Positions 10,478-47,344 of a stretch of DNA of 64,000 nt are shown piece by piece. The position numbers and the translations under genes were made by a program. The stretch comes from an uncultured Paludibacter sp. (GTDB lineage Bacteria > Bacteroidota > Bacteroidia > Bacteroidales > Paludibacteraceae). Position 1 is the first letter of the stretch; each line of letters begins with the position of its first letter. The notes beneath the pieces are model-generated. The model made no database searches and was not told the DNA's origin. It saw only the letters and a program-made list of their open reading frames with translations. The stretch covers positions 81,862-145,861 of the forward strand of contig CAXXNE010000001.1 in NCBI GenBank assembly GCA_963663115.2. The letters are read 5' to 3'.

Positions 10478-11581
10478 CTAAGTACATGACAAAAATTTGA
10501 AAATATCTATATTTGATTGAAATTCAGCATTTAATAGTACGGTTGCAATATAAGTTAGACCATATTTGAAAAAGCTTTTGCGCCTTTTACCATTGTTTAA
10601 AATTTTGATTGGCTTATCATGTTCGTGTAAATATATTCCGACCAAATATGCCCAACAAAATGCAATTGTTACTAAAGCTACAAGTTTTTCAATTCTTTTT
10701 ATATCAGTCAAGTGAGTGTCTTCTAAATTGAAACCACTTGTTTTCATTGCTCTAAATGCAGTTTCAATCTGCCAGCGTTCTTTGTATATTTTTTGCGCAA
10801 TTTCAGGTTTACAAAATGATATAACTATCTGAAATTCTGGTTTTCCTTCTTTGTTTTTTATTTTTGAAGCAGACAAGTAACACAACTGATTGTGAATGTT
10901 ATATATCGAGTGTAAGAATCTTGTTTCATTCAATTTTAAATTGCTAAAGAGCCATGTTGCCTTAAACTGTGTACCTGTTTTAGGATTCAAAACCCAGAAA
11001 TTATCCCGAATGCGAATATGATATTCAATTCGGTTAAAGTTCAGATAACTAATCCAATGTTCACCTACAAATTCACGGTCTGCCACCAGATATTGAATGG
11101 TTTCTTTCCCAAACAACCGAATGTAATGATTCACGATTTCAATTCTCTCTTTTGTATGAGAATTACCTCGTTTCGGCATTAATTTGAATATAATAGGAAA
11201 GGCAACACCTTTATAAACAATGGCTAATACCAAGATATTGATGTTTGTTTGTCCAAACTTCCAATTCGTTCTATCGATAGCAATCGAGTACGGTGGTTCA
11301 TGTGGCAAAAGTGCAAATATCAATCTTGCAATCAAGTCTTTGTCAAGTTTGTAATTAGCCATAAAACGTTGTATTCGTCGCAATGAAGAGTCGCTGTCAC
11401 AGCCATTTTCAAAGCCACTGGCAAGCTTTTCAAAACAAACGACTTGAACCTTGCAAAGAGCGCAAATAAACAGGCTTATGAACTTAATTCGGGCTAAGTT
11501 TAAACTTTTACCGAAGTATTCAACCAAAACTGAGGTTAAATCACTACTTTTGTGTGAGACCTTGGAATTCATTGTTTTCAT
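10478..11581 (-). CDS. IS4-family DDE transposase
   Basis: Contains the Y-2-R-3-E-6-K signature YKERWQIETAFRAMK, plus AIDRTNWKFG and VADREF acidic-residue contexts. The start is taken at ATG 11579-11581 (MKTMNSK...). Confidence 0.85.
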   Translation of the reverse strand: MKTMNSKVSHKSSDLTSVLVEYFGKSLNLARIKFISLFICALCKVQVVCFEKLASGFENGCDSDSSLRRIQRFMANYKLDKDLIARLIFALLPHEPPYSIAIDRTNWKFGQTNINILVLAIVYKGVAFPIIFKLMPKRGNSHTKERIEIVNHYIRLFGKETIQYLVADREFVGEHWISYLNFNRIEYHIRIRDNFWVLNPKTGTQFKATWLFSNLKLNETRFLHSIYNIHNQLCYLSASKIKNKEGKPEFQIVISFCKPEIAQKIYKERWQIETAFRAMKTSGFNLEDTHLTDIKRIEKLVALVTIAFCWAYLVGIYLHEHDKPIKILNNGKRRKSFFKYGLTYIATVLLNAEFQSNIDIFKFLSCT

Positions 11582-11702
11582 TATAACTGATTGGTATTCA
11601 GCTATAAAGATACAAAATTTCAAGGTCTTTACCAAATAAAATGACACTTATTTTATTGATAATCAAATAATTATATCGCTATATAATTTTTGTCATGTAC
11701 TA
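10478..11702 (-). mobile_element. IS4-family insertion sequence, apparently intact
   Basis: Perfect 17-bp terminal inverted repeats: AGTACATGACAAAAATT (10481-10497) and AATTTTTGTCATGTACT (11685-11701). An 11-bp direct repeat AATCATAATTT flanks it at 10467-10477 and 11703-11713. It contains a single transposase ORF. Confidence 0.85.
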
Positions 11703-26036: not shown

Positions 26037-26160
26037 GTTCGTAAACTTCTCTTAACCGTCGCTTAATGAAGCTTCGAATCGAGAAACTCGTTGGCGACGG
26101 TATTTTGCCCCCAACCATTACATTGTCATTCCGAGGGCAACGAGGAATCTAACATTTTTA
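26037..26160. repeat. copy A of a ~125-bp direct repeat flanking the GIY-YIG gene
   Basis: Aligns base for base with 26487-26610 at an offset of exactly 450 bp, with about 5 mismatches. Contains an ACCGTCGC...GCGACGGT inverted repeat and the motif TTGTCATTCCGAG. Confidence 0.9.
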
Positions 26161-26470
26161 ATTGTTTATTCGGTAACTTAATTTCATTATTTTCAAATAA
26201 TTCAAGCCATGCCGGATTTAAATTATTAATTAAATTATTCTTTTTTTCGCGGGAATAACCTTTAATTTGTTTTTCTCTTGCTATAGCCTGACTCACATCC
26301 TCAAACAGCTCAAAATAAACTAACTTTTTTACGTTATATTTTTTTGTAAAACCTTCATTTAAACCAGACTTATGTTCAGTTATTCGTCGTAATAAATTAT
26401 TTGTAACACCTGTGTAAACCACAGTATTACTTTTATTTGTAAGAATATAAACATAATAATGATTTCTCAT
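26126..26470 (-). CDS. GIY-YIG nuclease-family protein
   Basis: YYVYILTNKSNTVVYTGVTNNLLRRITEHK is the GIY-YIG (UPF0213-type) signature. The last ~10 codons are encoded by repeat copy A. Confidence 0.85.
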   Translation of the reverse strand: MRNHYYVYILTNKSNTVVYTGVTNNLLRRITEHKSGLNEGFTKKYNVKKLVYFELFEDVSQAIAREKQIKGYSREKKNNLINNLNPAWLELFENNEIKLPNKQLKMLDSSLPSE

Positions 26471-26486
26471 TTTTTTATTAATTTCT

Positions 26487-26610
26487 GTTCGTAAACTTCT
26501 CTTAACCGTCGCTTAATGAAGCTTCGAATTGAGAAACTCGTTGGCGACGGTATTTTGCCCCCAACCATTACATTGTCATTCCGAGTGCAACTAGGAAACT
26601 AGAATTTCAG
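26487..26610. repeat. copy B of the ~125-bp direct repeat
   Basis: See copy A. It lies between the rfbG stop (26635) and the GIY-YIG start (26470). Confidence 0.9.
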
Positions 26611-28897: not shown

Positions 28898-29390
28898 GTT
28901 TAATAAAAAACTATCTACTTCTTACTACTCACTGTCTTCCAACTTTCTAACTTTCCACTATACAAACTTTCTACTTACTACCAACTACCTACTTCTTTTC
29001 ACGGCAATGCCCCGCCACCCACAGTTGCAGATAGCCAGAGCGCTATAAATAAAGACATTATCCTATACGAATGATTGGAGGGAAAGAGATACAGATTCAA
29101 CAAGGCATCAGACGAGAAAATCATCTGAAGATAACACGAGAAGTATAAAAGTAACAGAAAGAAATACCGACAACTATCGGGTAATGTATTTTATAAGAAC
29201 TTTTAAATTATTTTTTTCTATTACTTACATAGCAACCGGCTACCCGATTGTCAATGTAGTTCATTCTAAATAATTAATTGTCAATTATCAATTGTCAATT
29301 ATCAATTATGTATATACTAATGTTAAACAAATAGCTGAAACTGTCATCACAATTCACTCCATGGAAACTCGTAGCCGGATAAATGCAGCA

Positions 29391-29398
29391 CAAATATA
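29391..29398 (-). promoter_or_regulatory. candidate -7 box (TATATTTG, minus strand) for the biosynthetic operon
   Basis: Perfect TAnnTTTG match about 494 nt upstream of the vanZ-like ATG. The distance is long, so this is weak. Confidence 0.25.
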
Positions 29399-29414
29399 GC
29401 AAAAATTTGTTAAG

Positions 29415-31335
29415 TTGAAACCTGCAGGCTGTTTTTTATTTCAAATATATAGGTTTTTGGTTCTCGCATCCCGATAGCTATCGTGATCCAAGTCGCGATA
29501 GTATAAGGAATAAGCGCAGTTTTTCGGGTGCAGCGAGCTCCGACTCGCTGATTAAATGTGGTAGCACTAACTCAGTCAGAGGTTTCAAACAAAGAAAATG
29601 ACAGGCTGGAAGCCTATTGACCCATGGAGTAAAAAAGAATGGAACGCGGATTTAGCGGATATGGCTGATATAAGCGGATTTTTTATTTAAAAGACGGATT
29701 TTTCCCGGATTATTTTGCTTCGCAAAAAGCGGATTTTTGGTGCGTGGGCTAAACCTGGCAGCGTTTGTTTTCGGGTCTCGCGTCCCGATAGCTATCGGGA
29801 TCCAAGTCGCGATATTCATCAGGAATTTTTTCAAGCAACAGGGATGTCGCTTGTCCCACGATTTGTAAGAAAAAAAAAGAATGATAATACAAAGAATCTA
29901 TGGAAGCGCTGTGCTCCTCTCCTCGGGAGAGGTTGGGAGAGGTCTTTTTTGGTTTAAATATGACAGGCTGGAAGCGCTGTTAACCCATAAGCAAAAGCGG
30001 ATTTTTGGTGTGTAGCTAAACCTGGCAGCGTACGTTTTCGGGTCTCGCGTCCCGATAGCTATCGGGATCCAAGTCGCGATATTCATCAGGTTGAATTTAT
30101 GTTTCAAGCGACAGGGATGTCGCTTGTCCCACGATTTGTAAGAAAAAAAGAATGATATTACAAAGAATCTATGGCAGCGCTGTACTCCTCTCCTCGGGAG
30201 AGGTTGGGAGAGGTCTTTTTTGTTTTAAAGAAAACAGGCTGGAAGCGCTGTTAACCCATAAGCAAAAGCGGATTTTTGGTGTGTAGCTAAACCTGGCAGC
30301 GTACGTTTTCGGGTCTCGCGTCCCGATAGCTATCGGGATCCAAGTCGCGATATTCATCAGGAATTTTTTCAAGCGACAGGGATGTGGCTTGTCCCACGAT
30401 ATGTAAGAAAAAAAGAATGATATTACAAAGAATCTATGGCAGCGCTGTACTCCTCTCCTCGGGAGAGGTTGGGAGAGGTCTTTTTTGGTTTAAATATGAC
30501 AGGCTGGAAGCCTATTGACCCATGGAGTAAAAAAGAATGGAACGCGGATTTAGCGGATATGGCTGATATAAGCGGATTTTTTATTTAAAAGACGGATTTT
30601 TTTCCGGATTATTTTGCTTCGCAAAAAGCGGATTTTTGGTGCGTGAACAAAACCTGACAGCGTACGTTTTCGGGTCTCGCGTCCCGATAGCTATCGGGAT
30701 CCAAGTCGCGATATTCATCAGGAATTTTTTCAAGCGACAGGGATGTCGCTTGTCCCACGATATGTAAGAAAAAAAAATGATAATACAAAGAATCTATGGC
30801 AGCGCTCTGCTCCTCTCCTCGGGAGAGGTTGGGAGAGGTCTTTTTTGGTTTTAATATGACAGGCTGGAAGCCTATTGACCCATGGAGTAAAAAAGAATGG
30901 AACGCGGATTTAGCGGATATGGCTGATATAAGCGGATTTTTTATTTAAAAGACGGATTTTTTTCGGATTATTTTGCTTCGCAAAAAGCGGATTTTTGGTG
31001 CGTGAACAAAACCTGACAGCGTACGTTTTCGGGTCTCGCGTCCCGATAGCTATCGGGATCCAAGTCGCGATATTCATCAGGAATTTTTTCAAGCCACAAG
31101 GATGTCGCTTGTCCCACGATATGTAAGAAAAAAAAGAATGATAATACAAAGAATCTATGGTAGCGCTGTGCTCCTCTCCTTGGGAGAGGTTGGGAGAGGT
31201 CTTTTTTGGTTTAAAGAAAACAGGCTAGAAGCCTATTGACCCATGGAGTATAAAAACAATAGAACGCGGATTTAGCGATTCTGATAGCTATCGGGAGGCG
31301 CGTTCCATTTCTTTTTTTGTCATGTACTTAGCACT
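29415..31335 (+). repeat. repeat block R1: five head-to-tail composite hairpin units plus a partial unit
   Basis: Unit starts (GCTAAACCTGGCAGCG or ACAAAACCTGACAGCG) at 29748, 30015, 30286, 30647 and 31006. Each unit carries the same ordered hairpin modules, joined by two alternative linkers (~40 nt or ~130 nt, GCGGATTT-rich). Confidence 0.9.
31314..31331. mobile_element. orphan terminal repeat of the IS4-family element
   Basis: TTTTTGTCATGTACTTAG is identical (18/18) to the reverse complement of the IS end at 10478-10495. No transposase or second end lies nearby. Confidence 0.7.
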
Positions 31336-31346
31336 AGCTTATATTT

Positions 31347-31994
31347 TCAGAATGTATTTTTAATAAGGACTTTAATTGACTCCTCTATTTCGGAAGGTGT
31401 AACCTGATATACTGGTTCCAATAGAGCAAAGTTACTATCAATTTGAAAGCGTTTACTATCCAAAAGCATTGCCAGCAGGTTTTTGGTGGACAGTAAATGT
31501 CCGGAATAAGCAGTCGCTTTTGTTATTATTTCTCTGAAATTATATCCGTTTTTAAGTATTGAATAGATGTCATAATAATCTCTGAAATTGCTTCGACGCA
31601 TCAACACCTCCATTTTCATAGCTGCAATTGCCATGATGTCAGCCAATAATAAATTGTCTTTAAATGGAATTGCTGTGGTAACGGGTGAATATTTAGCGGA
31701 AGCATAAAATGAGAGTTTCACACCCGAAACAATAAATTCAACATGATCAAAGTCCCAAATTTCACGCGCTTCAATGCTCCCAATTCCACTCAATTCTTTC
31801 TCAATTTTAACCCAATCGACTTCCGGCTTTTGATTTTTATTCGAAATCCAACTCATAAAATCGAGATCTTCGCTCAGGCGGGTTTGTAACTGTAATGACA
31901 AGGCAGTACCGCCCACCAAACAGTAATTCTTTATACAATCGAGTTTACAAACACTCTCAAATATCTTTGAAGTATGTGGTGCTAAAGCTTTCAT
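31347..31994 (-). CDS. AbiEii/AbiGii-family nucleotidyltransferase toxin-like protein
   Basis: LVGGTALSLQLQTRLSEDLDF is the NTase motif of the AbiEii (DUF1814) family. 215 aa. Confidence 0.65.
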   Translation of the reverse strand: MKALAPHTSKIFESVCKLDCIKNYCLVGGTALSLQLQTRLSEDLDFMSWISNKNQKPEVDWVKIEKELSGIGSIEAREIWDFDHVEFIVSGVKLSFYASAKYSPVTTAIPFKDNLLLADIMAIAAMKMEVLMRRSNFRDYYDIYSILKNGYNFREIITKATAYSGHLLSTKNLLAMLLDSKRFQIDSNFALLEPVYQVTPSEIEESIKVLIKNTF

Positions 31995-32320
31995 TAGTAA
32001 ATGCTCAAATGTTTATTTTCAACTTTTTTCAGGTATCTGTCCGGGTTTTTAATGCCAAAATACATCCAGGCGAGCAAATTGTTTAGTCGTTTATAATAAG
32101 CACCTTGTGTTACAATTCTATCCAGCCAAACCTGTTTGATTTTTTTGTGCGGATATAATCTGAAAAGCAAATTTATATCATCAATATCAAGATAAACCAA
32201 TGTTTTCTCAATTAAAATATCGTCAGGAATAGCATTACTTTTGTTCATGTCAAATGACCAAAACCGGTTATTTGAAACCAATTTTGAAACTAATTGATCA
32301 TGTGCATTTAGAGTTCTCAT
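31994..32320 (-). CDS. small partner protein of the AbiEii-like gene (putative antitoxin)
   Basis: 108-aa ORF whose stop overlaps the toxin start by 1 nt (TAATG). No family was recognised. Confidence 0.4.
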   Translation of the reverse strand: MRTLNAHDQLVSKLVSNNRFWSFDMNKSNAIPDDILIEKTLVYLDIDDINLLFRLYPHKKIKQVWLDRIVTQGAYYKRLNNLLAWMYFGIKNPDRYLKKVENKHLSIY

Positions 32321-32570
32321 TTCTGAATTAAGATATTATGAATGAATTGTTTTATGATTTGTATACCTGCAACTAAGAGAGTATAGTGTGGTATAATCTT
32401 TCGTCATAAGCCTGAAATAATGATAAATTATCAGTTTTTTCAATTTTGCAATAAAAAAAGCCGTAATTACAACCATTTATTCCTGTTATTTATTTAACTT
32501 TTGTAGCGATTACAAGGGTCAAAGATAAGAATAATTTGCAATTTTCGCTATATGCCCGCTTGCAATATTT

Positions 32571-33466
32571 AGAAAGTGCAGGTTTTTTGGGTGCAGCACT
32601 AACCCTGACAGCGTTTATTTTCGGGTCTCGCGAACTTCCAAGTCGCGATAATTATCAGGAATTTTTTCAAGCGACAGGGAAGTCGCTTGTCCCACGATTT
32701 GTAAGAAAAAAAAAGAATGATAATACAAAGAATCTATGGAAGCGCTCTGCTCCTCTCCTCGGGAGAGGTTGGGAGAGGTCTTTTTTGTTTTAATATGACA
32801 GGCTGGAAGCCTATTGACCCATGGAGTAAAAAAAAATAGAACGCTGATTGTTTTCAACATCGCGGATTGAGCTGATATAAGCGGATTTTTTATTTAAAAG
32901 ACGGATTTTTTTCGGATTATTTTGCTTCGCAAAAAGCGGATTTTTGGTGCGTGGGCTAAACCTAGCAGCGTTTATTTTTCGGGTCTCGCGACTTCCAGGT
33001 CGCGATAGTAAAAGGAATTAGCGCAGTTTTTCGGGTGCAGCGAGTTCCGACTCGCTGATTAAAGAATATACTTCGACCTGGGAGTCGAATCACCCGAAAA
33101 ATACCGCGTTTATTGTTTGTTTATGGTTTTGTGAAGGATTTGTGTTATTGCATAGAATCTAAAATATCACAATATTTGGAAAGCGCAGTTTATTTCGGGT
33201 GCAGCACGAACCCTGACAGGAGTTGCAAACTCTGTCAGAGGTTTAAAACAAAGAAGAAAACAGGCTGGAAGCTCTGTTTACCCATAAGTAAGCGCAGTTT
33301 ATTTCGGGTGCAGCACTAATCCTGAATGCGGAGATAATGCAAATTCATATAATTTGTGGGATTCGTAGTTTATAATTTCTTATTTGTTTTAAAGATAACA
33401 GGCAGGATGCCCGTCGACCCGTGGAATTCATAGTTCTAAAAAAAGCCGGAAGTGCTGTTCCCCCAT
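32571..33466 (+). repeat. repeat block R2, built from the same hairpin modules
   Basis: Contains the TCGCGAACTTCCAAGTCGCGA, CAAGCGACAGGGAAGTCGCTTG, CCTCTCCTCGGGAGAGG-T6, CAGCGAGTTCCGACTCGCTG, TTCGACCTGGGAGTCGAA and CCTGACAG...CTGTCAGAGG modules. Confidence 0.9.
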
Positions 33467-33675
33467 GAAGAACTGATGTGGTATTCCGACAAGATACTTT
33501 TTAGCGGTATAAAGGTGGTTTGTAGATGTGTGAAATTATCTTCTGCATTCTTCAAGCTACCATCAGAATCTGTCAGGTTAGTTTTTAGATATTTGGAGAT
33601 ACCTTTTTACATCCTGCAACAAACCTTACAGTTCGCAAATGTATATAAACGAACTGCAAGGGTATTCTGATAGTG

Positions 33676-33856
33676 CCCAAAACTTCCAACTTTCCAACTT
33701 TATGAACTTTCTACTTTCCAACTTTATAACTTTCTACTTTCCAACTTTATAACTTTCTACTTTCCAACTTTATAACTTTCTACTTTATAACTTTCTACTT
33801 GCCAACTTTATCAACTTTCTACTTTATAACTTTCTACTTTCCAACTTTCTACCTTT
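33676..33856. repeat. G-depleted, octamer-periodic low-complexity tract built on a 23-bp unit (AACTTTATAACTTTCTACTTTCC)
   Basis: Only 2 G in ~180 nt. The CTTT motif recurs every 7-8 nt, with several exact 23-bp repeats. It starts immediately after the stop of the LuxR-type gene. Confidence 0.9.
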
Positions 33857-34597
33857 TCAAATAATTTCCATCATCAGTCCATAGCGAACTGCCTGGGCAA
33901 CATTGTTAGCGCCTAATTTATCCAGTACTTTACAGCGATGGTTATTGATAGTGTATACGGAGTTAGCCAGTTCTGCAGCCACTTTGGTACTATCGTAACC
34001 TTTGGAAAGAAGCTTCAACACTGTGATTTCGGTTTTGGTCAGACAGGTTTCAGTATCGATGGCATGTAATTGATCGGCGAAACGTTTGTATGTGCACATA
34101 CCACGTGCCGGTTTCTCTGCATCATACTCTCCTATTTCGTTTATCAGCAATAGTAAAAAACGTATATCTCCGCAGTCATCCTGTTCAGCTATACTGTACT
34201 GAAAATGAAACCGTCGGTAATTACCGTTTTTATCCTTTAAACTACATTCGTACATCAGTTTATACGAAAAAATATCAGGATCATTGCACTTCTCTTTGAG
34301 TTTTAATGCTTCAAGTTTGCCATTCACCACATAGGTCCGTTCGTCGGGATGTACCATTCTCTGAAGTGAATCGTAGCCGGATAGCGTAGTTTCAAAAGGA
34401 TAGTTTTCGTTGTGCGTCCATTTGACAATGTGATATGCATCTTTGAAGGTGTCGAATATCAAAACACCTTCGTTGTGGTTCAGGGTTGATGCATCCATCA
34501 TTGATTCCGGATCCTGAATACGGGCATTACTTTCTTTTGTTTCCTGTAATTGCAATTTTAAAACATAGTTTTTTAATTTTTCATTTTGGCTTTCCAT
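33857..34597 (-). CDS. LuxR-family transcriptional regulator with an N-terminal PAS-like sensor region
   Basis: The C-terminal HTH LTKTEITVLKLLSKGYDSTKVAAELANSVYTINNHRCKVLDKLGANNVAQAV is LuxR/FixJ-type. There is no receiver domain. Confidence 0.7.
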   Translation of the reverse strand: MESQNEKLKNYVLKLQLQETKESNARIQDPESMMDASTLNHNEGVLIFDTFKDAYHIVKWTHNENYPFETTLSGYDSLQRMVHPDERTYVVNGKLEALKLKEKCNDPDIFSYKLMYECSLKDKNGNYRRFHFQYSIAEQDDCGDIRFLLLLINEIGEYDAEKPARGMCTYKRFADQLHAIDTETCLTKTEITVLKLLSKGYDSTKVAAELANSVYTINNHRCKVLDKLGANNVAQAVRYGLMMEII

Positions 34598-34732
34598 AAT
34601 ACTTTTTTAATTATTTATATAAATATTTAGATTATTTATTTATTCTGTCGACACAGAACCTGTTTTAAGTTTAGTAATGAGATAAATAGTATATAATGAT
34701 TTTTCACTATTGCAGAAGATTTTTTCAACACA

Positions 34733-34740
34733 TAGATTTG
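34733..34740 (+). promoter_or_regulatory. candidate -7 box TAGATTTG
   Basis: TAnnTTTG match 122 nt upstream of the ATG at 34862, in an AT-rich divergent intergenic region. Confidence 0.3.
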
Positions 34741-34861
34741 CATTCGTCACAGGATAACAGTATTCTGACATAGCTTTATTAAAAATAACAATATTTTATA
34801 TATCACCAAAGACGTTCATTAGAATTTATTAACAAATTTATTTACCTAAAGCAATTAATTT

Positions 34862-35566
34862 ATGGCAACAGGAACAAGAATTCCCCGCGGTATTGATGAC
34901 TTCGATACCTACATTGTGAACACAAGTAATTATTTATTTAAAGGCACACCCACCAATGCCGAACGATTGGGCATTTTGACCGATGAGAGTACGCAATGGA
35001 AAGCATTTGCCGACAAATGGATGCCCGATTACCAAAAGTACAAGGACAAGAAAAACAGCAGAACCATAGCTGTGCGGGATAAACTATTACAAATCATCAG
35101 CGATACCATTGAGTACGATCAAAAAAACCGTATACTCGACCGCATAGCCGCATCGCCCAACGTGATTATTGAAGATTTGGGTATTTTCAATATTAATATC
35201 GGAATTCTGCAGAAAACCCGGCGTTCAGTATTGACCACCCCTATCACCGAACCGGTAACAGTAACCATACAACCCCTGGGCGGAGGATCAATGAATATTA
35301 AATGTTACAGCACCACAGGACAACGTTCCGCTATTTACAGCGTTGCCGACAGTGTTCAATATGTGTATATAGTAAGCGATACGCCACCTGTATCGGCAGA
35401 AGCTCCGGGTTTGAGCAAGGAGATATCAACCCGTGGTACTTTTACGCTTGCATTAGGATCAGGCAGTTCAGCCAAAAATCTGTACATCTATTTCCGTTGG
35501 TATTGCACCAAACATCCCGAACTATCCGGGCCCTGGAGCGCCATGCAAACCTCATTGATTCTATAA
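34862..35566 (+). CDS. hypothetical protein with a beta-sandwich-like C-terminal half ending ...FRWYCTKHPELSGPWS
   Basis: 234-aa ORF with a clean start and a strong terminator. It is the only plus-strand gene between 0 and 47 kb. No family was recognised. Confidence 0.6.
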   Translation: MATGTRIPRGIDDFDTYIVNTSNYLFKGTPTNAERLGILTDESTQWKAFADKWMPDYQKYKDKKNSRTIAVRDKLLQIISDTIEYDQKNRILDRIAASPNVIIEDLGIFNINIGILQKTRRSVLTTPITEPVTVTIQPLGGGSMNIKCYSTTGQRSAIYSVADSVQYVYIVSDTPPVSAEAPGLSKEISTRGTFTLALGSGSSAKNLYIYFRWYCTKHPELSGPWSAMQTSLIL

Positions 35567-35574
35567 ACAAAACC

Positions 35575-35615
35575 TCTCCCCGACTCTTCCTGCAAAAAGT
35601 CGGGGAGATTTTTTT
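35575..35615 (+). terminator. Rho-independent terminator
   Basis: An 11-bp perfect stem TCTCCCCGACT / AGTCGGGGAGA (35575-35585, 35598-35608), a 12-nt loop, then T7 (35609-35615). It begins 9 nt after the stop codon. Confidence 0.85.
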
Positions 35616-35616
35616 A

Positions 35617-36609
35617 TCATGCCCTACGGACAATATTAGGCTGCGCCTGTTATTACTCTCTCGCCAGAGGCGAGATCGTATTAATTAGCCTTCGGCTGAT
35701 ATTAGCTTCGCTGATATGTGTTTCGGGTCTCGCGACTTCCAAGTCGCGATAGTAAAAGGAATTAGCGCAGTTTTTCGGGTGCAGCGAGTTCCGACTCGCT
35801 GATTAAAGAATATACTTCGACCTGGAAGTCGAATCACCCGAAAAATACCGCATTTATTATTTTTTATGGTTTTGTGAAGGATTTATTTTATTGCATATAA
35901 TCTGAAATATCATAATATTTAGAAAGTGCCGGTTTTCGGGTGCAGCACGAACCCTGACAGGAATTGCAAACTCTGTCAGAGGTTTATCATAAAGAAGAAA
36001 ACAGGCTGGAAGCTCTGTTTACCCGGAAAAAAGTGCAGGTTTTCGGGTGCATGAACTAAACCTGTCAGCGTTTAAAAAACCTGACAGCGTTGTATATAAA
36101 TCCATCAAGCGACAGGGATGTGGCTTGTCCCACGATATGTAAGAAAAAAAAGATAATACAAAGAATCTATGGCAGCGCTCTGCTCCTCTCCTCGGGAGAG
36201 GTTGGGAGAGGTCTTTTTTGGTTTAAAGTAAACAGACTGGAAGCGCTATTGACCCATGGAGTAAAAAAGAATAGAACGCGGATTTAGCGGATATGGCTGA
36301 TATAAGCGGATTTTAAATATAGAAAAAGACGGATTTTTTTTCGGATTATTTTGCTTTGCAAAAGCGGATTTTTGGTGCGTAACTAAACCTGGCAGCGTTT
36401 GTTTTCGGGTCTCGCGAACTTCCAAGTCGCGATAATTATCAGGAATTTTTTCAAGCCACAGGGATGTCGCTTGTCCCACGATATGTAAGGAAGAAAAAGG
36501 TGATGATACAAAGAATCTATGGTAGCGCTCTGCTCCTCTCCTTGGGAGAGGTTGGGAGAGGTCTTTTTTGGTTTAAAGTAAACAGACTGGAAGCACTATT
36601 GACCCATGG
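35617..36609 (+). repeat. repeat block R3: a reverse-oriented mini-hairpin array followed by the shared hairpin modules
   Basis: 35620-35716 carries AGCCTTCGGCT/AGCTTCGCT-type mini-hairpins. The remainder repeats the R2/R4 module order nearly verbatim. Confidence 0.9.
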
Positions 36610-36624
36610 AAAGTAAGAATCAGT

Positions 36625-37029
36625 TTATTGTTTTTTATTTATCAGTTTTTCTATCTCAATTATATATTTAATTGCCGGATCGATTAATGGTTTAATATCA
36701 GCCTCCGACAAATTAAACAAGTCATCATAATCACCTGTTTGCCGCATTTCAAAAAGCTTTGAATACAATTTGGAATGCTCTTTATCAACTAAACCGGTAG
36801 CAACAAAATGCAATCCAAAAAGTCTGATAATACCTGAATGTGTTTGTGCATTATAACCATATTTAATTAGTAATGCTGATGTCATATAATAACAGGCATA
36901 ATATAATCGGTTTGTAACTGCATTCCAATAATTTAGTTGAGCAATTCCGATCGCTTCATTTAATGTGTCCTTAGATTTTTGAATTCTGTAAAAAACAATA
37001 GCATCTCTTTCTTCTTCTGTTAAGCTCAT
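36625..37029 (-). CDS. HEPN-domain protein (toxin of an MNT-HEPN pair)
   Basis: 134 aa, helical, with RLYYACYYMTSALLIKYGYNAQTHSGIIRLF typical of HEPN. It overlaps the MNT gene by 4 nt. Confidence 0.7.
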   Translation of the reverse strand: MSLTEEERDAIVFYRIQKSKDTLNEAIGIAQLNYWNAVTNRLYYACYYMTSALLIKYGYNAQTHSGIIRLFGLHFVATGLVDKEHSKLYSKLFEMRQTGDYDDLFNLSEADIKPLIDPAIKYIIEIEKLINKKQ

Positions 37030-37343
37030 AGTACAATCCCTTCCATCTCAATATTTTTATAAAACTGAGTAAAATTTCTTTTTTGCCATTCACTAAAGGT
37101 ATAAAGTTTAGGACTGATCTGTTCTCCTTCTTTCCAGCCTAACTCAATTAATGGATATGATATTTTATCAAAATCCTCATTTTCAATTTTTGGTTTATCC
37201 AGTAAAATAAGCAAATCCCAGTCTGAATTCTGATTTGCTGAATTTCTTGCTTGCGAACCATAAAGAATTACCTTTCCGCTATTATTTACAGAAATAATCA
37301 AATTTTTAATTTCAAGAAGCAACTCCTGTTTTGTTTTTTTCAT
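37026..37343 (-). CDS. minimal nucleotidyltransferase (MNT) antitoxin-like protein
   Basis: Contains the NTase motif LYGSQARNSANQNSDWDLLILLD. 105 aa. Confidence 0.7.
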   Translation of the reverse strand: MKKTKQELLLEIKNLIISVNNSGKVILYGSQARNSANQNSDWDLLILLDKPKIENEDFDKISYPLIELGWKEGEQISPKLYTFSEWQKRNFTQFYKNIEMEGIVL

Positions 37344-37372
37344 AACTTCAACTCATTAGAAAACTAATTTTG

Positions 37373-37380
37373 CAAATCTA
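37373..37380 (-). promoter_or_regulatory. candidate -7 box (TAGATTTG, minus strand) for the MNT-HEPN operon
   Basis: TAnnTTTG match 30 nt upstream of the MNT ATG (37341-37343). Confidence 0.45.
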
Positions 37381-37483
37381 TAAAAAAAATCACAATAAAC
37401 GCAATTATATCAAAGACATAAATACTATTATTCTACATTTGCAATAACAAGTAATCAATAAAGTAACATAAAACAATAGTTGT

Positions 37484-38519
37484 AAGCACATTTTTTGGGT
37501 GCGTAGCTAAACCTGGCAGCGTTTGTTTTCGGGTCTCGCGTCCCGATAGCTATCGGGATCCAAGTCGCGATATTCATCAGGTTTGAATTTATGTTTCAAG
37601 CGACAGAGATGTCGCTTGTCCCACGATTTGTAAGAAAAAAAAGAATGATAATACAAAGAATCTATGGAAGCGCTGTGCTCCTCTCCTCGGGAGAGGTTGG
37701 GAGAGGTCTTTTTTGGTTTAAATATAACAGGCTGGAAGCGCTATTGACCCATGGAGTAAAAAAGAATGGAACGCTGATATAAGCGGATTTTAAATATAGA
37801 AGAAGACGGATTTTTTTCCGGATTATTTTGCTTCGCAAAAAGCGAATTTTTGGTGCGGGCTAAACCTGACAGCGTACGTTTTTGGGTCTCGCGACTTCCA
37901 AGTCGCGATAGTAAAAGGAATTAGCGCAGTTTTTCGGGTGCAGCGAGTTCCGACTCGCTGATTAGTGAATATACTTCGACCTGGATCCCGATAGCTATCG
38001 GGACGAATCATCCGAAAAACACCGCATTTATTATTTTTTTATGGTTTTGTGAAGGATTTATTTTATTGCATAGAATCTGAAATATCATAATATTTAGAAA
38101 GTGCAGGTTTTCGGGTGCAGCACGAACCCTGACAGGAATTGCAAACTCTGTCAGAGGTTTATCATAAAGAAGAAAACAGGCTGGAAGCTCTGTTTACCCG
38201 GAAAAAAGCGCAGGTTTTCGGGTGCATGAACTAAACCTGTCAGCGTTTAAAAAACCTGACAGCGTTGTATATAAATCCATCAAGCGACAGGGATGTCACT
38301 TGTCCCACGATATGTAAGAAAAAAAATGATAATACAAAGAATCTATGGAAGCGCTCTGCTCCTCTCCTCCGGAGAGGTTGGGAGAGGTCTTTTTTGGTTT
38401 TAATATGACAGACTGGAAGCGCTATTGACCCATAAAAAGTGCCGATTTTCGGGTGCAGCGAGCTCTGAACTGCATTCCAAAAGTTAGACAAAAAACTTTT
38501 GGGATGCAGTTCATTTTTA
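37484..38519 (+). repeat. repeat block R4, same modules, ending in a 19-bp-stem hairpin
   Basis: Module order parallels R1 and R3. The terminal hairpin is GAACTGCATTCCAAAAGTT (38467-38485) / AACTTTTGGGATGCAGTTC (38494-38512), with 1 mismatch. Confidence 0.9.
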
Positions 38520-39282
38520 CACTATCAGTCCTTTACTTTATAACTTTCAAACTTCTTACTTTCTAACTTCTAAATTGGAATCGGAATTCCAATCACCCGA
38601 ATAACAATGCCATCACTCCTGCCTCATCTGACCAACATCCCGTCTGACGGATGTCCCGTCTGACGGATTAAAACAAAAGCCTGATAGCATTTGTACACTA
38701 TCAGGCCTTTACTTTATAACTTTCTACTTTCTAACTTCTAAATTGGAATCGGAATTCCAATCACCCGAATAACAATGCCATCACTCCTGCCTCATCTGAC
38801 CAACATCCCGTCTGACGGATGTCCCGTCTGACGGATTAAAACAAAAGCCTGATAGCATTTGTACACTATCAGGCCTTTACTTTATAACTTTCAAACTTCT
38901 TACTTTCTAACTTCTAAATTGGAATCGGAATTCCAATCACCCGAATAACAATGCCATCACTCCTGCCTCATCTGACCAACATCCCGTCTGACGGATGTCC
39001 CGTCTGACGGATTAAAACAAAAGCCTGATAGCATTTGTACACTATCAGGCCTTTACTTTATAACTTTCAAACTTCTTACTTTCTAACTTCTAAATTGGAA
39101 TCGGAATTCCAATCACCCGAATAACAATGCCATCACTCCTGCCTCATCTGACCAACATCCCGTCTGACGGATGTCCCGTCTGACGGATTAAAACAAAAAG
39201 CCTGATAGCATTTACACTATCAGGCTTTTTACTTTATAACTTTCTACTTTCTAACTTTTCACTTTCTAACTTTCAACTAAAA
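38520..39282 (-). repeat. tandem array of about 4.4 copies of a 168-177-bp unit, each carrying a minus-strand terminator hairpin
   Basis: The hairpin GCCTGATAG...CTATCAGGC occurs at 38679-38706, 38847-38874, 39023-39050 and 39200-39225, with a partial copy at 38520. Each unit also holds ATTGGAAT-CGGA-ATTCCAAT and a duplicated TCCCGTCTGACGGAT. Confidence 0.95.
39191..39225 (-). terminator. Rho-independent terminator of the OmpA-family gene (first of four tandem copies)
   Basis: The minus strand reads GCCTGATAGTGTAAATGCTATCAGGC followed by TTTTTGTTTT. It lies 58 nt downstream of the stop at 39283. Confidence 0.75.
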
Positions 39283-41916: not shown

Positions 41917-42157
41917 TTACATTTTATACATTTTCAATTAATTCATTAATTATTTATGCATCATCACATATGCACGTCAACTCTCCTGATAGTATTAGGG
42001 ACACATCACCACATCCAAATTCGCGAGTCGGAACTCGCGACACCCGACATCCTCACATCAACTCTCTCAATAGCTATCAAAGACTGCTTAACAGAACTTC
42101 AAAAATGCCAAATCCCGACTACTAACTACCTACTCCGGACTCAGAACTCAATACTAC

Positions 42158-45880: not shown

Positions 45881-45898
45881 TCCCGATAGCTATCGGGA
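45881..45898. repeat. isolated copy of the 18-bp perfect palindrome TCCCGATAGCTATCGGGA
   Basis: Identical to the copies nested in R1 and R4. Flanked by AAATCTTCAA on both sides (45871-45880, 45900-45909). Confidence 0.9.
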
Positions 45899-46826: not shown

Positions 46827-46921
46827 TATAAAACTTTTAATTTATGTGAATAATAAGAGAAAAAACCTGCGCAAAAACATGAAACTGTAAGGAGTAGGTA
46901 GTTTGTAGTAGGTAGTTAGTA

Positions 46922-46991
46922 GTTCTGAGTTCTGAGTTCTGAGTTCTGAGTTCTGAGTTCTGAGTTCTGAGTTCTGAGTTCTGAGTTCTGA
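46922..46991. repeat. heptanucleotide microsatellite (GTTCTGA)10
   Basis: Ten perfect tandem copies counted directly, preceded by a C-free GTAG-rich tract (46887-46921). Confidence 0.95.
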
Positions 46992-47140
46992 GTGGAGGAT
47001 CTCACCCCCTGCCCCCTCTCCAGACCTCTCTCCCCATTCGGGTACTCTCCCCAGCTGGGGAAAGGAAATGGATTTCTTTATGATTATAGGGAAAGGAAAT
47101 GGAAAAAATTTAGTTATAAGGGGGAATACCGACTGCAACA

Positions 47141-47328
47141 TAATAACAGCCGAAGGCTAAATATCAAGACCGTAGGGAGTAATAACAGCGAAGCGAATAT
47201 CAGCCGTAGGCTAAATATCACGACCGTAGGGAGTAATAACAGCGAAGCGAATAACAGCCGAAGGCTAATATCAGGCGTAGCCGAATAACGTGACCGAAGG
47301 AAACAAATATCACGACCAAAGGGAGTAA
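47141..47328 (+). repeat. array of ~10 mini-hairpin units (AATAWCA + stem-GNA-stem)
   Basis: Units include AGCC-GAA-GGCT, GC-GAA-GC, AGCC-GTA-GGCT, GGC-GTA-GCC and CC-GTA-GG, spaced 15-22 nt apart. Confidence 0.85.
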
Positions 47329-47344
47329 AACAGGAGTTTTTTTG

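Follow-up and report, generated by a model that had tools for sequence, protein, structure and literature searches.

In the pdif (XerC/D) modules of Acinetobacter plasmids and in integron arrays, small cargo, often toxin-antitoxin (TA) genes, is surrounded by short structured recombination sites and shuffled from replicon to replicon, an arrangement that recalls the gene islets described here. Among short extragenic palindromes, the REPs of the Bacteroidetes RAYT subclass 2.6 do not carry GT[AG]G and mostly have 8- to 10-bp stems and 3- to 4-nt loops (PMC6006769).

We analysed a window of 64,000 nucleotides from an uncultured Paludibacter sp., in which a gap of ~9 kb separates two operons of a Bacteroidales capsule locus and is filled by non-coding tandem hairpin elements, with TA gene cassettes in between. 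Our preferred explanation, which we hold to be probable, is that the gap houses nested, non-autonomous repeats which form hairpins and which accumulated and were tandemly amplified there. The hairpin-element family is apparently undescribed and shared with Bacteroidota phages, and the region looks like selfish DNA and not a new functional system.

The capsule-locus gap and its repeat blocks

The transcription units on either side of the gap are co-directional: UpxY-Wza-Wzc-OMP-OmpA on one side and the biosynthetic operon on the other. Annotation of the window genes agreed with the gene context of the original prediction. The gap and its surroundings contain the following features.

29313 to 29460, minus: non-coding conserved block carrying TAnnTTTG (-7) promoter motifs, one at 29391 and one at 29442
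29461 to 31309, plus: block 1, a partial unit followed by five composite units placed head to tail (starts 29725, 29993, 30264, 30624 and 30983; order terminus/linker-H-K-A2-B-C-END), closed at 31297-31309 by an inverted truncated terminus, GCGCGTTCCATT
31315 to 31328, plus: solo TIR copy of a DDE insertion sequence, where block 1 meets islet 1
31337 to 32430, minus: islet 1, AbiEii toxin (31347-31994) and DUF6922 AbiEi-like partner (31994-32320), from Pfam and PADLOC
32571 to 33466, plus: block 2, one alpha unit, linker, truncated gamma unit (A-D-E-F-END) and short degenerate unit
33857 to 35608, both strands: islet 2, LuxR/GerE-type regulator (33857-34597, minus), 234-aa gene (34862-35566, plus) and terminator (35575-35608)
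35617 to 36609, plus: block 3, tiny-hairpin array (35634-35717), gamma unit (35718-36262), linker and alpha unit (36360-36609)
36625 to 37343, minus: islet 3, TA pair of HEPN (36625-37029) and MNT nucleotidyltransferase (37026-37343)
37484 to 38520, plus: block 4a, alpha unit, linker, gamma unit and a unit start joined to a 20-bp-stem hairpin (38466-38513)
38512 to 39258, minus: block 4b, 176-bp x4.3 tandem array

A module scan of the window found every predicted module in its predicted place, on the plus strand only, across 29415-38460: hairpin A or A2 (12 copies), hairpin B (10), module C (10), D (4), E (2), F (3) and the unit-end motif END (15). The A2 copies, starting at 29778, 30045, 30316, 30677 and 31036, reproduce the predicted spacings of 267, 271, 361 and 359 bp in a five-unit head-to-tail array. 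Tandem amplification was likewise supported by Tandem Repeats Finder, which returned 271 bp x3.0 (93% matches) and 361 bp x2.8 (95%). The degenerate module patterns matched nine times where 0.00 matches were expected by chance, and self-BLAST HSPs of 150-785 bp at 81-96% identity span the blocks. A small vocabulary of hairpin modules, nested and shuffled, is supported. The prediction had also counted 38512-39258 among these blocks, but block 4b belongs to a separate family. Each of its units holds the intrinsic terminator of the OmpA-like gene, one primitive hairpin (TTCGGGTG ATTGGAAT TCCG ATTCCAAT) and two 16-bp repeats with CCGTCAGACGG.

Nested repeat elements

The repeats would comprise three nested element types: a MITE-like family, a REP-like primitive and an 18-bp palindrome. 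Their copies are as follows.

29636 to 29745, plus: iteron terminus, AATGGAACGCGGAT and then CGGAT/CTGAT iterons every 9-10 nt
30534, 30894, 31256 (short), 32833, 36268 and 37763, plus: starts of more termini, from nhmmer and CGGAT clusters
35776 to 35840: inverted doublet of the primitive, D (35776-35801, plus) and E (35816-35840, minus), from hairpin scan and folding
29525, 32980, 33032, 33072, 35724, 37883, 37935, 38574, 38742, 38918 and 39094: other primitives, from hairpin scan
42021 to 42046, minus: solo primitive hairpin, CGGGTG TCGCGAGT TCCG ACTCGCGA, between the BY-kinase gene and an outer-membrane protein gene
29783 to 29800: 18-bp perfect palindrome TCCCGATAGCTATCGGGA, nested in hairpin A
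30050, 30321, 30682, 31041 and 37541: starts of exact palindrome copies in A
37986 (in E) and 45881 (solo): palindrome copies elsewhere, with degenerate copies at 29469 and 31279

What had been predicted as a GCGGATTT-rich linker belongs to a widespread family of MITE-like elements, whose terminus it forms: rGAACGCGGAT, then three more CGGAT iterons 9-10 nt apart, usually trailed by the polypurine hairpin of module C. An nhmmer profile built solely from 32 termini of viral (phage) contigs matched the window linkers (E=7.7e-9 for three copies, and 5e-8, 1.7e-3, 5.6e-3 and 1.5e-2), the related contig L005 (1e-9) and, in a Paludibacter MAG, the two ends of an element of 230 bp (2e-10 and 5e-7), with no match in the shuffled window. 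The termini are thus homologous to phage-borne elements. Most of 44 distinct termini have four iterons, and 93 of 129 intervals show the 9-10-nt spacing. CGGAT clusters in this region lie on the plus strand only; the window termini are co-oriented, one truncated copy excepted, so that inverted termini do not flank the islets.

Several hairpin modules proved to be one REP-like primitive (head YGGGTS, 8-bp stem, loop TCCR), occurring singly or as inverted doublets on both strands; the stem sequence varies from module to module while head and loop are kept. The window holds 19 matches, 14 of them in this locus, compared with 0-3 in shuffles. The 14 perfect hairpins carry five different stem sequences and lie on both strands. 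Module E and the unit-end hairpin repeat, in inverted orientation, the primitive of A and D (A and E are 82% complementary across 49 nt), and in the D/E doublet the heads base-pair, TTTTTCGGGTG with CACCCGAAAAA. Since the primitive occurs on both strands, the predicted uniform orientation is limited to the composite units. Conserved heads and loops with covarying stems could alternatively reflect a selected RNA or protein-binding function.

The palindrome has 52 exact copies in 46 viral-contig stretches, compared with 0 for a scrambled control. The primitive was absent from the viral contigs, and the unit-end motif had no true match in 185,579 representative genomes or JGI metagenomes; both results count against the preferred explanation. 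Searches by plasmid and phage BLAST and of literature sequences matched no catalogued family, nor did Rfam at the gathering score, in line with the statement that the family cannot be assigned to a described element. The further statement, that the content goes well beyond ordinary REPs or terminators, does not hold: the linker is a MITE-like terminus seen in phage contigs and the MAG, and the small hairpins resemble REPs in the kind of arrangement seen in BIMEs or REPINs.

Relatives, islets and alternative explanations

One alternative is that the array acts in cis, as a device for regulation or insulation that blocks read-through and antisense transcription between operons and TA cassettes. 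Stacked hairpins and terminator-like modules would do this together with iteron operators, which the LuxR-type regulator encoded in islet 2 may bind. The region is bordered exactly by one operon's terminator array and the next operon's promoter-like block, terminator-like sites are enriched across it (18 versus 8.5 expected), on the plus strand module C forms a hairpin with T6 after it, and the primitive keeps its head and loop while its stems covary. An iteron spacing of about one helical turn also suggests cooperative protein binding. However, the terminator scan did not flag module C, and such termini also sit at unrelated phage intergenic sites. Relatives argue against it too: L110 and L111 share the gene order without the array, and the matching gap of L005 (~85% nucleotide identity) holds one decayed set of D, F, linker, H, K, B and C, with hairpins B and D broken, hairpins A, E and END absent and no islets. 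Substitutions among the window copies mostly disrupt base pairs. We consider this explanation, including the part given to the regulator, doubtful.

Comparison with relatives shows hairpins present or absent at orthologous sites, with a single-copy gap state in L005. The junction of block 3 is present in L103, where hairpin A is missing from the orthologous HEPN junction and an extra hairpin occurs; the 42021 hairpin sits in ~150 nt missing from L005. The prediction that the blocks split the capsule locus was overstated, as L005 has the gap that separates the OmpA-like gene from the biosynthetic operon, with one module set already in it. The capsule halves are separate transcription units in a relative too. 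The block at 29313-29460, presumably the biosynthetic operon promoter together with the left edge of the nest, is 93% identical to L005 12388-12242 while flanking genes are only 82-87% identical; because the operon retains this promoter-like block, the locus is probably not functionally split.

It is also conceivable, but quite unlikely, that the iteron termini serve a phage or satellite protein (recombinase or small terminase) as recognition sites and that the gap is a hotspot at which phages and the chromosome exchange defence cassettes and, perhaps, capsule genes. Bacteroidota phage contigs share the termini, as inverted pairs of 85-117 bp (four in L121), as head-to-tail multimers, a trait of the MITE-like family in its terminus-plus-hairpin units, and in one case as an inverted pair enclosing an AbiJ gene. 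One site varies among related phages: L032, L035 and L050 carry two or three tandem left units and one inverted right terminus, and L018 a 277-aa AbiJ_NTD4 gene. Moreover, the window islets are defence or TA genes, and the biosynthetic genes of the window and L005 diverge just past the promoter-like block. Against this, no recombinase or terminase was linked to the termini, the window islets are flanked by direct termini, related phages yielded no empty site, and the same TA cassettes also occur in relatives without any termini.

Very unlikely is a role of the units as small-RNA genes or a large structured non-coding RNA. They fold strongly as single strands (z=-3.6 for a 271-bp unit, z=-7.5 for a 545-bp unit), and module C weakly matches Rfam whalefall-1, but at 18-20 bits, far under the cut-off of 37. 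A scan for TAnnTTTG found the motif upstream of both capsule units and all islets but no Bacteroidetes promoter motif within the repeat units on either strand, and the hairpins are decayed in relatives.

The predicted bracketing of three accessory islets by repeat blocks was supported. Islet 1 is 89% identical in nucleotides to L105 1378-2510 with sharp homology edges, its upstream TAnnTTTG motif (32520) lying outside the edge; the 234-aa protein of islet 2 has no Pfam, NCBIfam, PHROG or PADLOC match; and islet 3, with its motif just upstream (37373), fits exactly between one unit end and the next unit start. The same MNT-HEPN and AbiE pairs also occur in relatives' polysaccharide loci or TA arrays without these repeats, and the islets were therefore not created by the repeats. 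Co-oriented TA cassettes with structured repeats between them, and sharp homology edges in relatives' arrays of PIN, MNT-HEPN and AbiE cassettes, recall an integron-like cassette array (CALIN) with the repeats as attC sites. This is largely refuted and highly improbable: neither strand gave an RYYYAAC...GTTRRRY candidate with inner pairing (0), the scanned window ORFs include no integrase, each cassette has its own promoter-like motif, and the islets lie between unit end and unit start, not behind an attC-like site.

Misassembly is common in highly repetitive regions, but an artefact is barely credible here, as the copies diverge by 4-19% with distinct indels and module content (which makes a collapsed or duplicated assembly unlikely), the source is a single 4.12-Mb contig, and the independent metagenome contigs L005 and L103 share modules at the same junctions.

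Mechanism and comparison with known systems

Under the preferred explanation of a repeat nest, the elements would have been spread by an enzyme acting in trans, a DNA-binding recombinase or transposase with the iterons or hairpins as its recognition sites. For the primitive, one candidate is a RAYT-type Y1 enzyme of Bacteroidetes. Arrays may have grown locally by unequal recombination or slippage. The three accessory cassettes among the repeats, each with a promoter-like motif upstream, would include TA cassettes that arrived by recombination, and the repeats may have little or no effect on capsule expression. The analysis found neither a transposase nor a RAYT or integrase with matching ends, and no target-site duplications were seen at the inverted pairs in phage contigs or the 42021 hairpin site. 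The TIRs of the window's only insertion sequence (10478-11702) are unrelated to the repeat elements; they are two of the three exact copies of its TIR 14-mer in the window, the third being the solo copy at 31315-31328. Overall, the original interpretation is partly supported.

Compared with pdif and integron arrays, the window has no attC or dif-like sites and no integrase or Xer link, and its islets lie between direct repeats with their own promoter-like motifs. With MITEs and foldback elements, among them MITEs shared by phages and hosts (bioRxiv 10.1101/2024.01.18.576219), the present elements have several traits in common: they are non-coding, have terminal inverted repeats and 85-555-bp members at intergenic sites, and occur both in bacterial chromosomes and in phage contigs, with variable content at one phage site. 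They differ in having termini of four 5-bp iterons at 9-10-nt spacing instead of a simple TIR, left ends that multimerise head to tail, one member enclosing a defence gene, and no target-site duplication or autonomous parent found. Compared with REP/BIME/REPIN systems (RAYT, TnpA-REP), the foot here is YGGGTS in place of GT[AG]G, the TCCR loop is kept, no RAYT was found in the window, and the cluster (~5 kb) far exceeds typical BIMEs. The likeness lies in short extragenic palindromes with a conserved 5' foot, 8- to 10-bp stem and 3- to 4-nt loop (PMC6006769), in several stem classes together and inverted doublets, and in mosaic clusters mixed with other motifs, tandem amplification and insertion into other hairpins.

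Composition of the repeat blocks

The original prediction described four non-coding blocks assembled from a small set of hairpin modules. Pattern searches recovered these blocks, and all of the listed modules lay on the plus strand and only within 29415-38460. The head-to-tail spacings of 267, 271, 361 and 359 bp were also reproduced, with the palindrome-bearing hairpin A2 at 29778, 30045, 30316, 30677 and 31036. The repeats are as follows, the modules being counted by pattern search.

Plus strand, 12 copies: hairpin A, counting the form that bears the palindrome (A2)
Plus strand, 10 copies: hairpin B, CAAGCGACA-GGGA-TGTCGCTTG
Plus strand, 10 copies: module C, CCTCTCC-TCG-GGAGAGG-TT-GGGAGAGG-T6
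Plus strand, 4, 2 and 3 copies: modules D, E and F, respectively
38512-39258, minus strand (the sense strand for the OmpA-like gene): tandem array of 176 bp x4.3, immediately 3' of that gene

Tandem Repeats Finder reported periods of 271 bp (x3.0) and 361 bp (x2.8) with 93-95% matches, and self-BLAST covered the blocks with HSPs 150-785 bp long and 81-96% identical. Degenerate patterns gave 9 matches in the window versus none in shuffles, and as single strands representative units folded well beyond shuffled sequences (z=-3.6 and z=-7.5). Because the copies differ by 4-19% and the same junctions occur in independent metagenome contigs, an assembly artefact is unlikely. Units start with AAG[CT]GC.G.TTTT[CT]GGGTGC (16 copies) and end with ACAGGCTGGAAGC..CTRTT.ACCCAT (15 copies); between one end and the next start lie gene islets, a linker, or a few bases only.

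The description in terms of shared modules stood for the four blocks but not for 38512-39258, which is a different repeat. Each 176-bp unit there comprises the intrinsic terminator of the OmpA-like gene, two 16-bp repeats and one hairpin of a simple type that we call the primitive. The 16-bp repeats contain the palindrome CCGTCAGACGG, a candidate protein-binding site by its appearance. The best sub-threshold Rfam match in this array was ohsC (30.7 bits versus a threshold of 50). As for relatives, locus L006 carries at least the start of one unit and L005, a syntenic JGI metagenome contig, carries none.

The primitive consists of a head, (T)TYGGGTS, a perfect stem of 8 bp and a loop of TCCG or TCCA. 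Fourteen perfect examples, with stems of 6-8 bp and five unrelated stem sequences, have the YGGGT(S) head and the TCCR-containing loop in common, and the scan total was 19 in the window versus 0-3 in shuffles. It lies on the plus strand in A and D and is inverted in E and in the unit-end hairpin; four further copies are on the minus strand within the 176-bp array, and a solo copy is found at 42021-42046. Since head and loop are kept across modules and on both strands, the uniform orientation originally proposed is a property of the composite units and does not extend to the basic hairpin. Modules D and E make up an inverted doublet with pairing heads, complementarity between A and E reaches 82% over 49 nt, and the clusters bearing primitives are mosaics with other motifs.

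Within the 64-kb window, primitive copies are confined to this locus and to 42021, where the hairpin sits in about 150 nt missing from L005; on either side of this insertion about 25 nt are duplicated, in a microsatellite-like context. The generic primitive pattern matched viral contigs 50 times, none with complementary stems, and the unit-end motif gave one single match in GTDB representatives and three in JGI metagenomes, all attributable to chance. No Y1_Tnp domain was found in the 30 window ORFs scanned, which take in about half of those in the biosynthetic operon.

Two other kinds of short repeat were observed. A second hairpin family forms arrays of 17-20-nt units (GTTATTA or GATATTA, then a tiny variable stem with a TTCG/TAAA-type loop) at 47120-47330 and 35634-35717, in L006 (1560-1730 and 2890-3030) and in the spacers of JGI contig L105; in relatives it fills the spacers of toxin-antitoxin (TA) cassettes. 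Heptamer-type microsatellites and low-complexity tracts, namely (GAGTTCT)n, (AATTGTC/AATTATC)n and a 23-nt AACTTTCTACTTTCCAACTTTAT repeat, lie by gene ends at 46921-46992, 29276-29309, 33681-33860 and 28916-28997. Similar tracts occur beside the 18-bp palindrome discussed below in phage contigs L012, L034, L037 and L038, and also in Microbacter (L128).

Iteron termini and an 18-bp palindrome shared with phages

A 230-bp element in a Paludibacter sp. MAG (L112) has inverted ends that both correspond to the window linker. Inspection of IMG/VR matches to GGAACGCGGAT with two further CGGAT behind it left about 40 distinct termini. Their consensus is rGAACGCGGAT-N4-CGGAT-N4/5-CGGAT-N4/5-CGGAT-T-run, with an iteron spacing of 9-10 nt in 93 of the 129 intervals. 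A profile built solely from 32 viral termini matched the window linkers (E=7.7e-9 for three copies, then 5e-8, 1.7e-3, 5.6e-3 and 1.5e-2), the linker of L005 (E=1.2e-9) and both ends of the L112 element (1.8e-10 and 5e-7), while the shuffled window gave no match. Homology between window and phage termini is evident from these matches, and judged by its sequence the window linker is a transposon-like terminus of a MITE-like family.

Terminal inverted repeats bound family members of 85-117 bp (four in phage contig L121), 230 bp (L112) and 555 bp (phage contig L032). The L121 elements consist of two inverted termini only and are all intergenic. In L032 the element repeats terminus plus polypurine hairpin three times in tandem before an inverted right end, and phage contigs L035 and L050 carry multimers of the same kind at the same phage site. 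At this site L018 carries a 1.35-kb version, compared to 555 bp in L032, around a 277-aa AbiJ_NTD4 gene (Pfam 3e-36), the sole gene between inverted termini among the loci examined. These phage contigs encode a large terminase similar to those found in Flavobacteriia phages.

In the phages, a polypurine hairpin with a repeated right arm is followed by about 25 AT-rich bases and then by AATGGAACGCGGAT, the same layout as module C plus linker in the window. The multimers and the shared layout together indicate that head-to-tail multimerisation is a trait of the family. Block 1 (29461-31309) fits this habit: four termini in direct orientation are followed by a truncated inverted one, GCGCGTTCCATT, which closes the block at 31297-31309. 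Elsewhere in the window the termini are direct, and inverted closure is seen only here.

No consistent flanking direct repeat indicative of a target-site duplication was found at the four L121 elements, L112 or L032, and no autonomous parent with the same termini was found among the loci examined. The DDE insertion sequence of the window was ruled out as the mobiliser, its terminal inverted repeats being unrelated to the termini. This DDE_Tnp_1 element lies at 10478-11702, inside the biosynthetic operon, and has 17-bp terminal inverted repeats (AGTACATGACAAAAATT); a solo end is present at 31315-31328, on the border of block 1 and the AbiE islet.

The 18-bp palindrome TCCCGATAGCTATCGGGA occurs at 29783-29800 and in seven further exact copies in the window, including a solo copy at 45881-45898. 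It stands in place of the bases ACT within CGACTTCCA in two hairpin types, namely A and, on the opposite strand, E. In IMG/VR there were 52 exact copies in 46 viral-contig stretches (L007-L052) versus none for a scrambled palindrome of the same composition. The copies are mostly intergenic (40 of 49 contexts outside long ORFs) and often lie inside C-type polypurine hairpins. An apex position was taken to require at least 5 bp of complementary flank immediately next to the palindrome, and only 3 of the 49 contexts qualified (6%, versus 0.6% of controls). Invariable placement at hairpin apices is therefore ruled out; the apex enrichment is real, yet it concerns a minority of contexts. One palindrome copy (L010 4837-4854 and L030 3392-3409) seems to lie inside a tRNA- or tmRNA-like 3' part, with GGTTCGAGTCCTGCCATCGCTACA downstream, and ARAGORN called no gene at this place. 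Neither the 14-bp core of the palindrome nor the terminus motif had a match in the searchable literature.

The locus in relatives and the gene islets

The predicted gene context was borne out. The islets encode AbiEii with a DUF6922 partner, a GerE/LuxR regulator with a 234-aa gene product, and a HEPN-MNT pair; the export side comprises the OmpA-like gene, BY-kinase, Wza and a NusG-like UpxY.

L005 is about 85% identical to the window at the nucleotide level and syntenic from the hybrid two-component sensor gene through the OmpA-like gene, from which just 1.2 kb separate the MatE-type flippase gene. This gap contains single copies of D (decayed), F, linker and H, then K, K, B (broken) and C, without islets and without the A, E and END hairpins. 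Upstream of the biosynthetic operon, two non-coding blocks (28993-29147 and 29313-29460) match L005 at 90-93% identity, above the level of the genes. The latter, a conserved promoter-like block for that operon, bears a pair of minus-strand TAnnTTTG promoter motifs; the former had no Rfam match and may be a conserved 5' leader element. The conserved blocks and promoter motifs suggest that the capsule locus is organized as two transcription units in both organisms, and the repeat nest is placed between the terminator of one unit and the presumed promoter of the other.

The HEPN-junction ortholog L103 (87.5% identity) keeps K-K-B-C-END, lacks hairpin A and has an extra hairpin, and in L006 A2 and B are found at another locus. 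Presence or absence of elements thus varies between orthologous sites in L005 (A, E, END and 42021), in L103 (A and the extra hairpin) and at the phage site of L032 and L018.

The AbiE cassette (31337-32430) has a counterpart of 89% identity in JGI contigs L104-L106, where it comes after an MNT-HEPN pair in an array of co-oriented TA cassettes with spacers of the other tiny-hairpin family and sharp homology edges. The same two pairs directly follow UpxY in loci L110 and L111, in the window order and without repeats. MNT-HEPN pairs recur within or next to polysaccharide loci in Paludibacter-like MAGs (L112 and L129) and Microbacter margulisiae (L128), and no repeat module was found in the Microbacter locus and two Paludibacter-like loci with such TA pairs. 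The recurrence of TA cassettes in polysaccharide loci without repeats argues that the cassettes are independent of the repeats. A TAnnTTTG promoter-like motif lies upstream of each islet, and the genes of islet 2 are divergent.

Several further features of these genes were observed. A C-type polypurine hairpin, CTCCCTCTCC-CGTC-GGAGAGGGCTGGGGTGAGGTC, lies between the MNT and HEPN genes of L105 (about 620-680), and in the window the MNT and HEPN genes share 4 nt. The far end of the operon has another candidate TA pair, made up of a UPF0175 antitoxin-like gene (2394-2717) and an unannotated gene encoding 140 aa (1384-1806). A gene for a 114-aa GIY-YIG nuclease (26126-26470, minus strand) lies in the biosynthetic operon and has a directly repeated sequence of about 110 bp on either side (26037-26150 and 26488-26600), which suggests duplicative insertion.

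Nature and significance of the nest

The observation behind the original prediction is real and its description largely correct, but its interpretation needs revision. Most likely, the nest consists of selfish non-autonomous hairpin elements, MITE-like and REP/BIME-like, together with TA/defence cassettes. The elements would have inserted into one another and been amplified in tandem within a transcriptionally quiet gap. A trans-acting enzyme would recognise the iterons or hairpins, unequal recombination may have amplified the arrays, and the repeats would be neutral for capsule expression. The MITE-like and REP-like labels are given by likeness; as neither a cognate enzyme nor a consistent target-site duplication was found among the loci examined, membership in either kind is tentative.

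A more ambitious reading is that the CGGAT-iteron termini define an undescribed class of cargo-carrying, non-autonomous elements of Bacteroidales chromosomes and phages. Their recognition would fall to a recombinase or a packaging protein that binds iterons; their ends would multimerise, and the elements would carry defence/TA genes (AbiJ in a phage; AbiE and MNT-HEPN in the window) to hotspots of the capsule-locus type. We regard this as improbable. The ability of the termini to enclose a phage defence gene is nevertheless the most interesting lead.

A structured RNA or regulatory array is an unlikely alternative. Rfam 15 gave no match at the gathering threshold across the whole window and nothing usable at E<=5 either; whalefall-1 on module C was sub-threshold (18-20 bits versus 37). 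The terminator scan did not flag module C, and no Bacteroidetes promoter motif was found within any unit. In other searches, block 1 had no BLAST match in PLSDB plasmids or INPHARED phages, and spurious ORFs arising from the repeats were absent from the protein collection and had no homologues. An invertible promoter was considered from ACGTACGT, present in some units and resembling ARACGTWCGT, which we take to be an invertible-promoter-type motif; it was dropped because conservation of the motif from unit to unit is lacking, as is an inverted partner. An integron or CALIN is very unlikely, as 29401-38520 has no attC candidate on either strand (R'' RYYYAAC ... R' GTTRRRY with inner L''/L' pairing, 50-150 bp), no integrase occurs in the 30 window ORFs scanned, and the islets have upstream motifs rather than being promoterless co-oriented cassettes.

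Repeat elements of Bacteroidota are poorly catalogued, and this locus displays at least three interacting families: the iteron-terminated MITE-like element, the REP-like hairpin and the 18-bp palindrome. The iteron termini and the palindrome, both of which occur in Bacteroidota phage contigs too, can serve as sequence probes for the enzymes that move the repeats, for the settling of defence cassettes in capsule loci, and for avoiding mis-annotation as genes or RNAs. Should the termini turn out to act in recombination or packaging, the locus would offer a tractable system for studying how phages and hosts exchange defence genes; if they do not, what fills this transcriptionally silent gap is selfish DNA that has accumulated in the ordinary way, though to an unusual extent.

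REP/BIME/REPIN systems are among the closest described analogues of the nest. The foot of the primitive is CGGGTG or CGGGTC, and the canonical GT[AG]G is absent. REPs near the Bacteroidetes-dominated RAYT subclass 2.6 also lack GTAG, with stems mostly of 8-10 bp and 3-4-nt loops such as TCCT (PMC6006769), and the missing foot therefore rules out only the canonical REP classes. MITEs common to phages and their hosts (bioRxiv 10.1101/2024.01.18.576219) are also close to the elements of the nest. The nest is apparently an undescribed variant of these known kinds of mobile repeat and not a new functional system.
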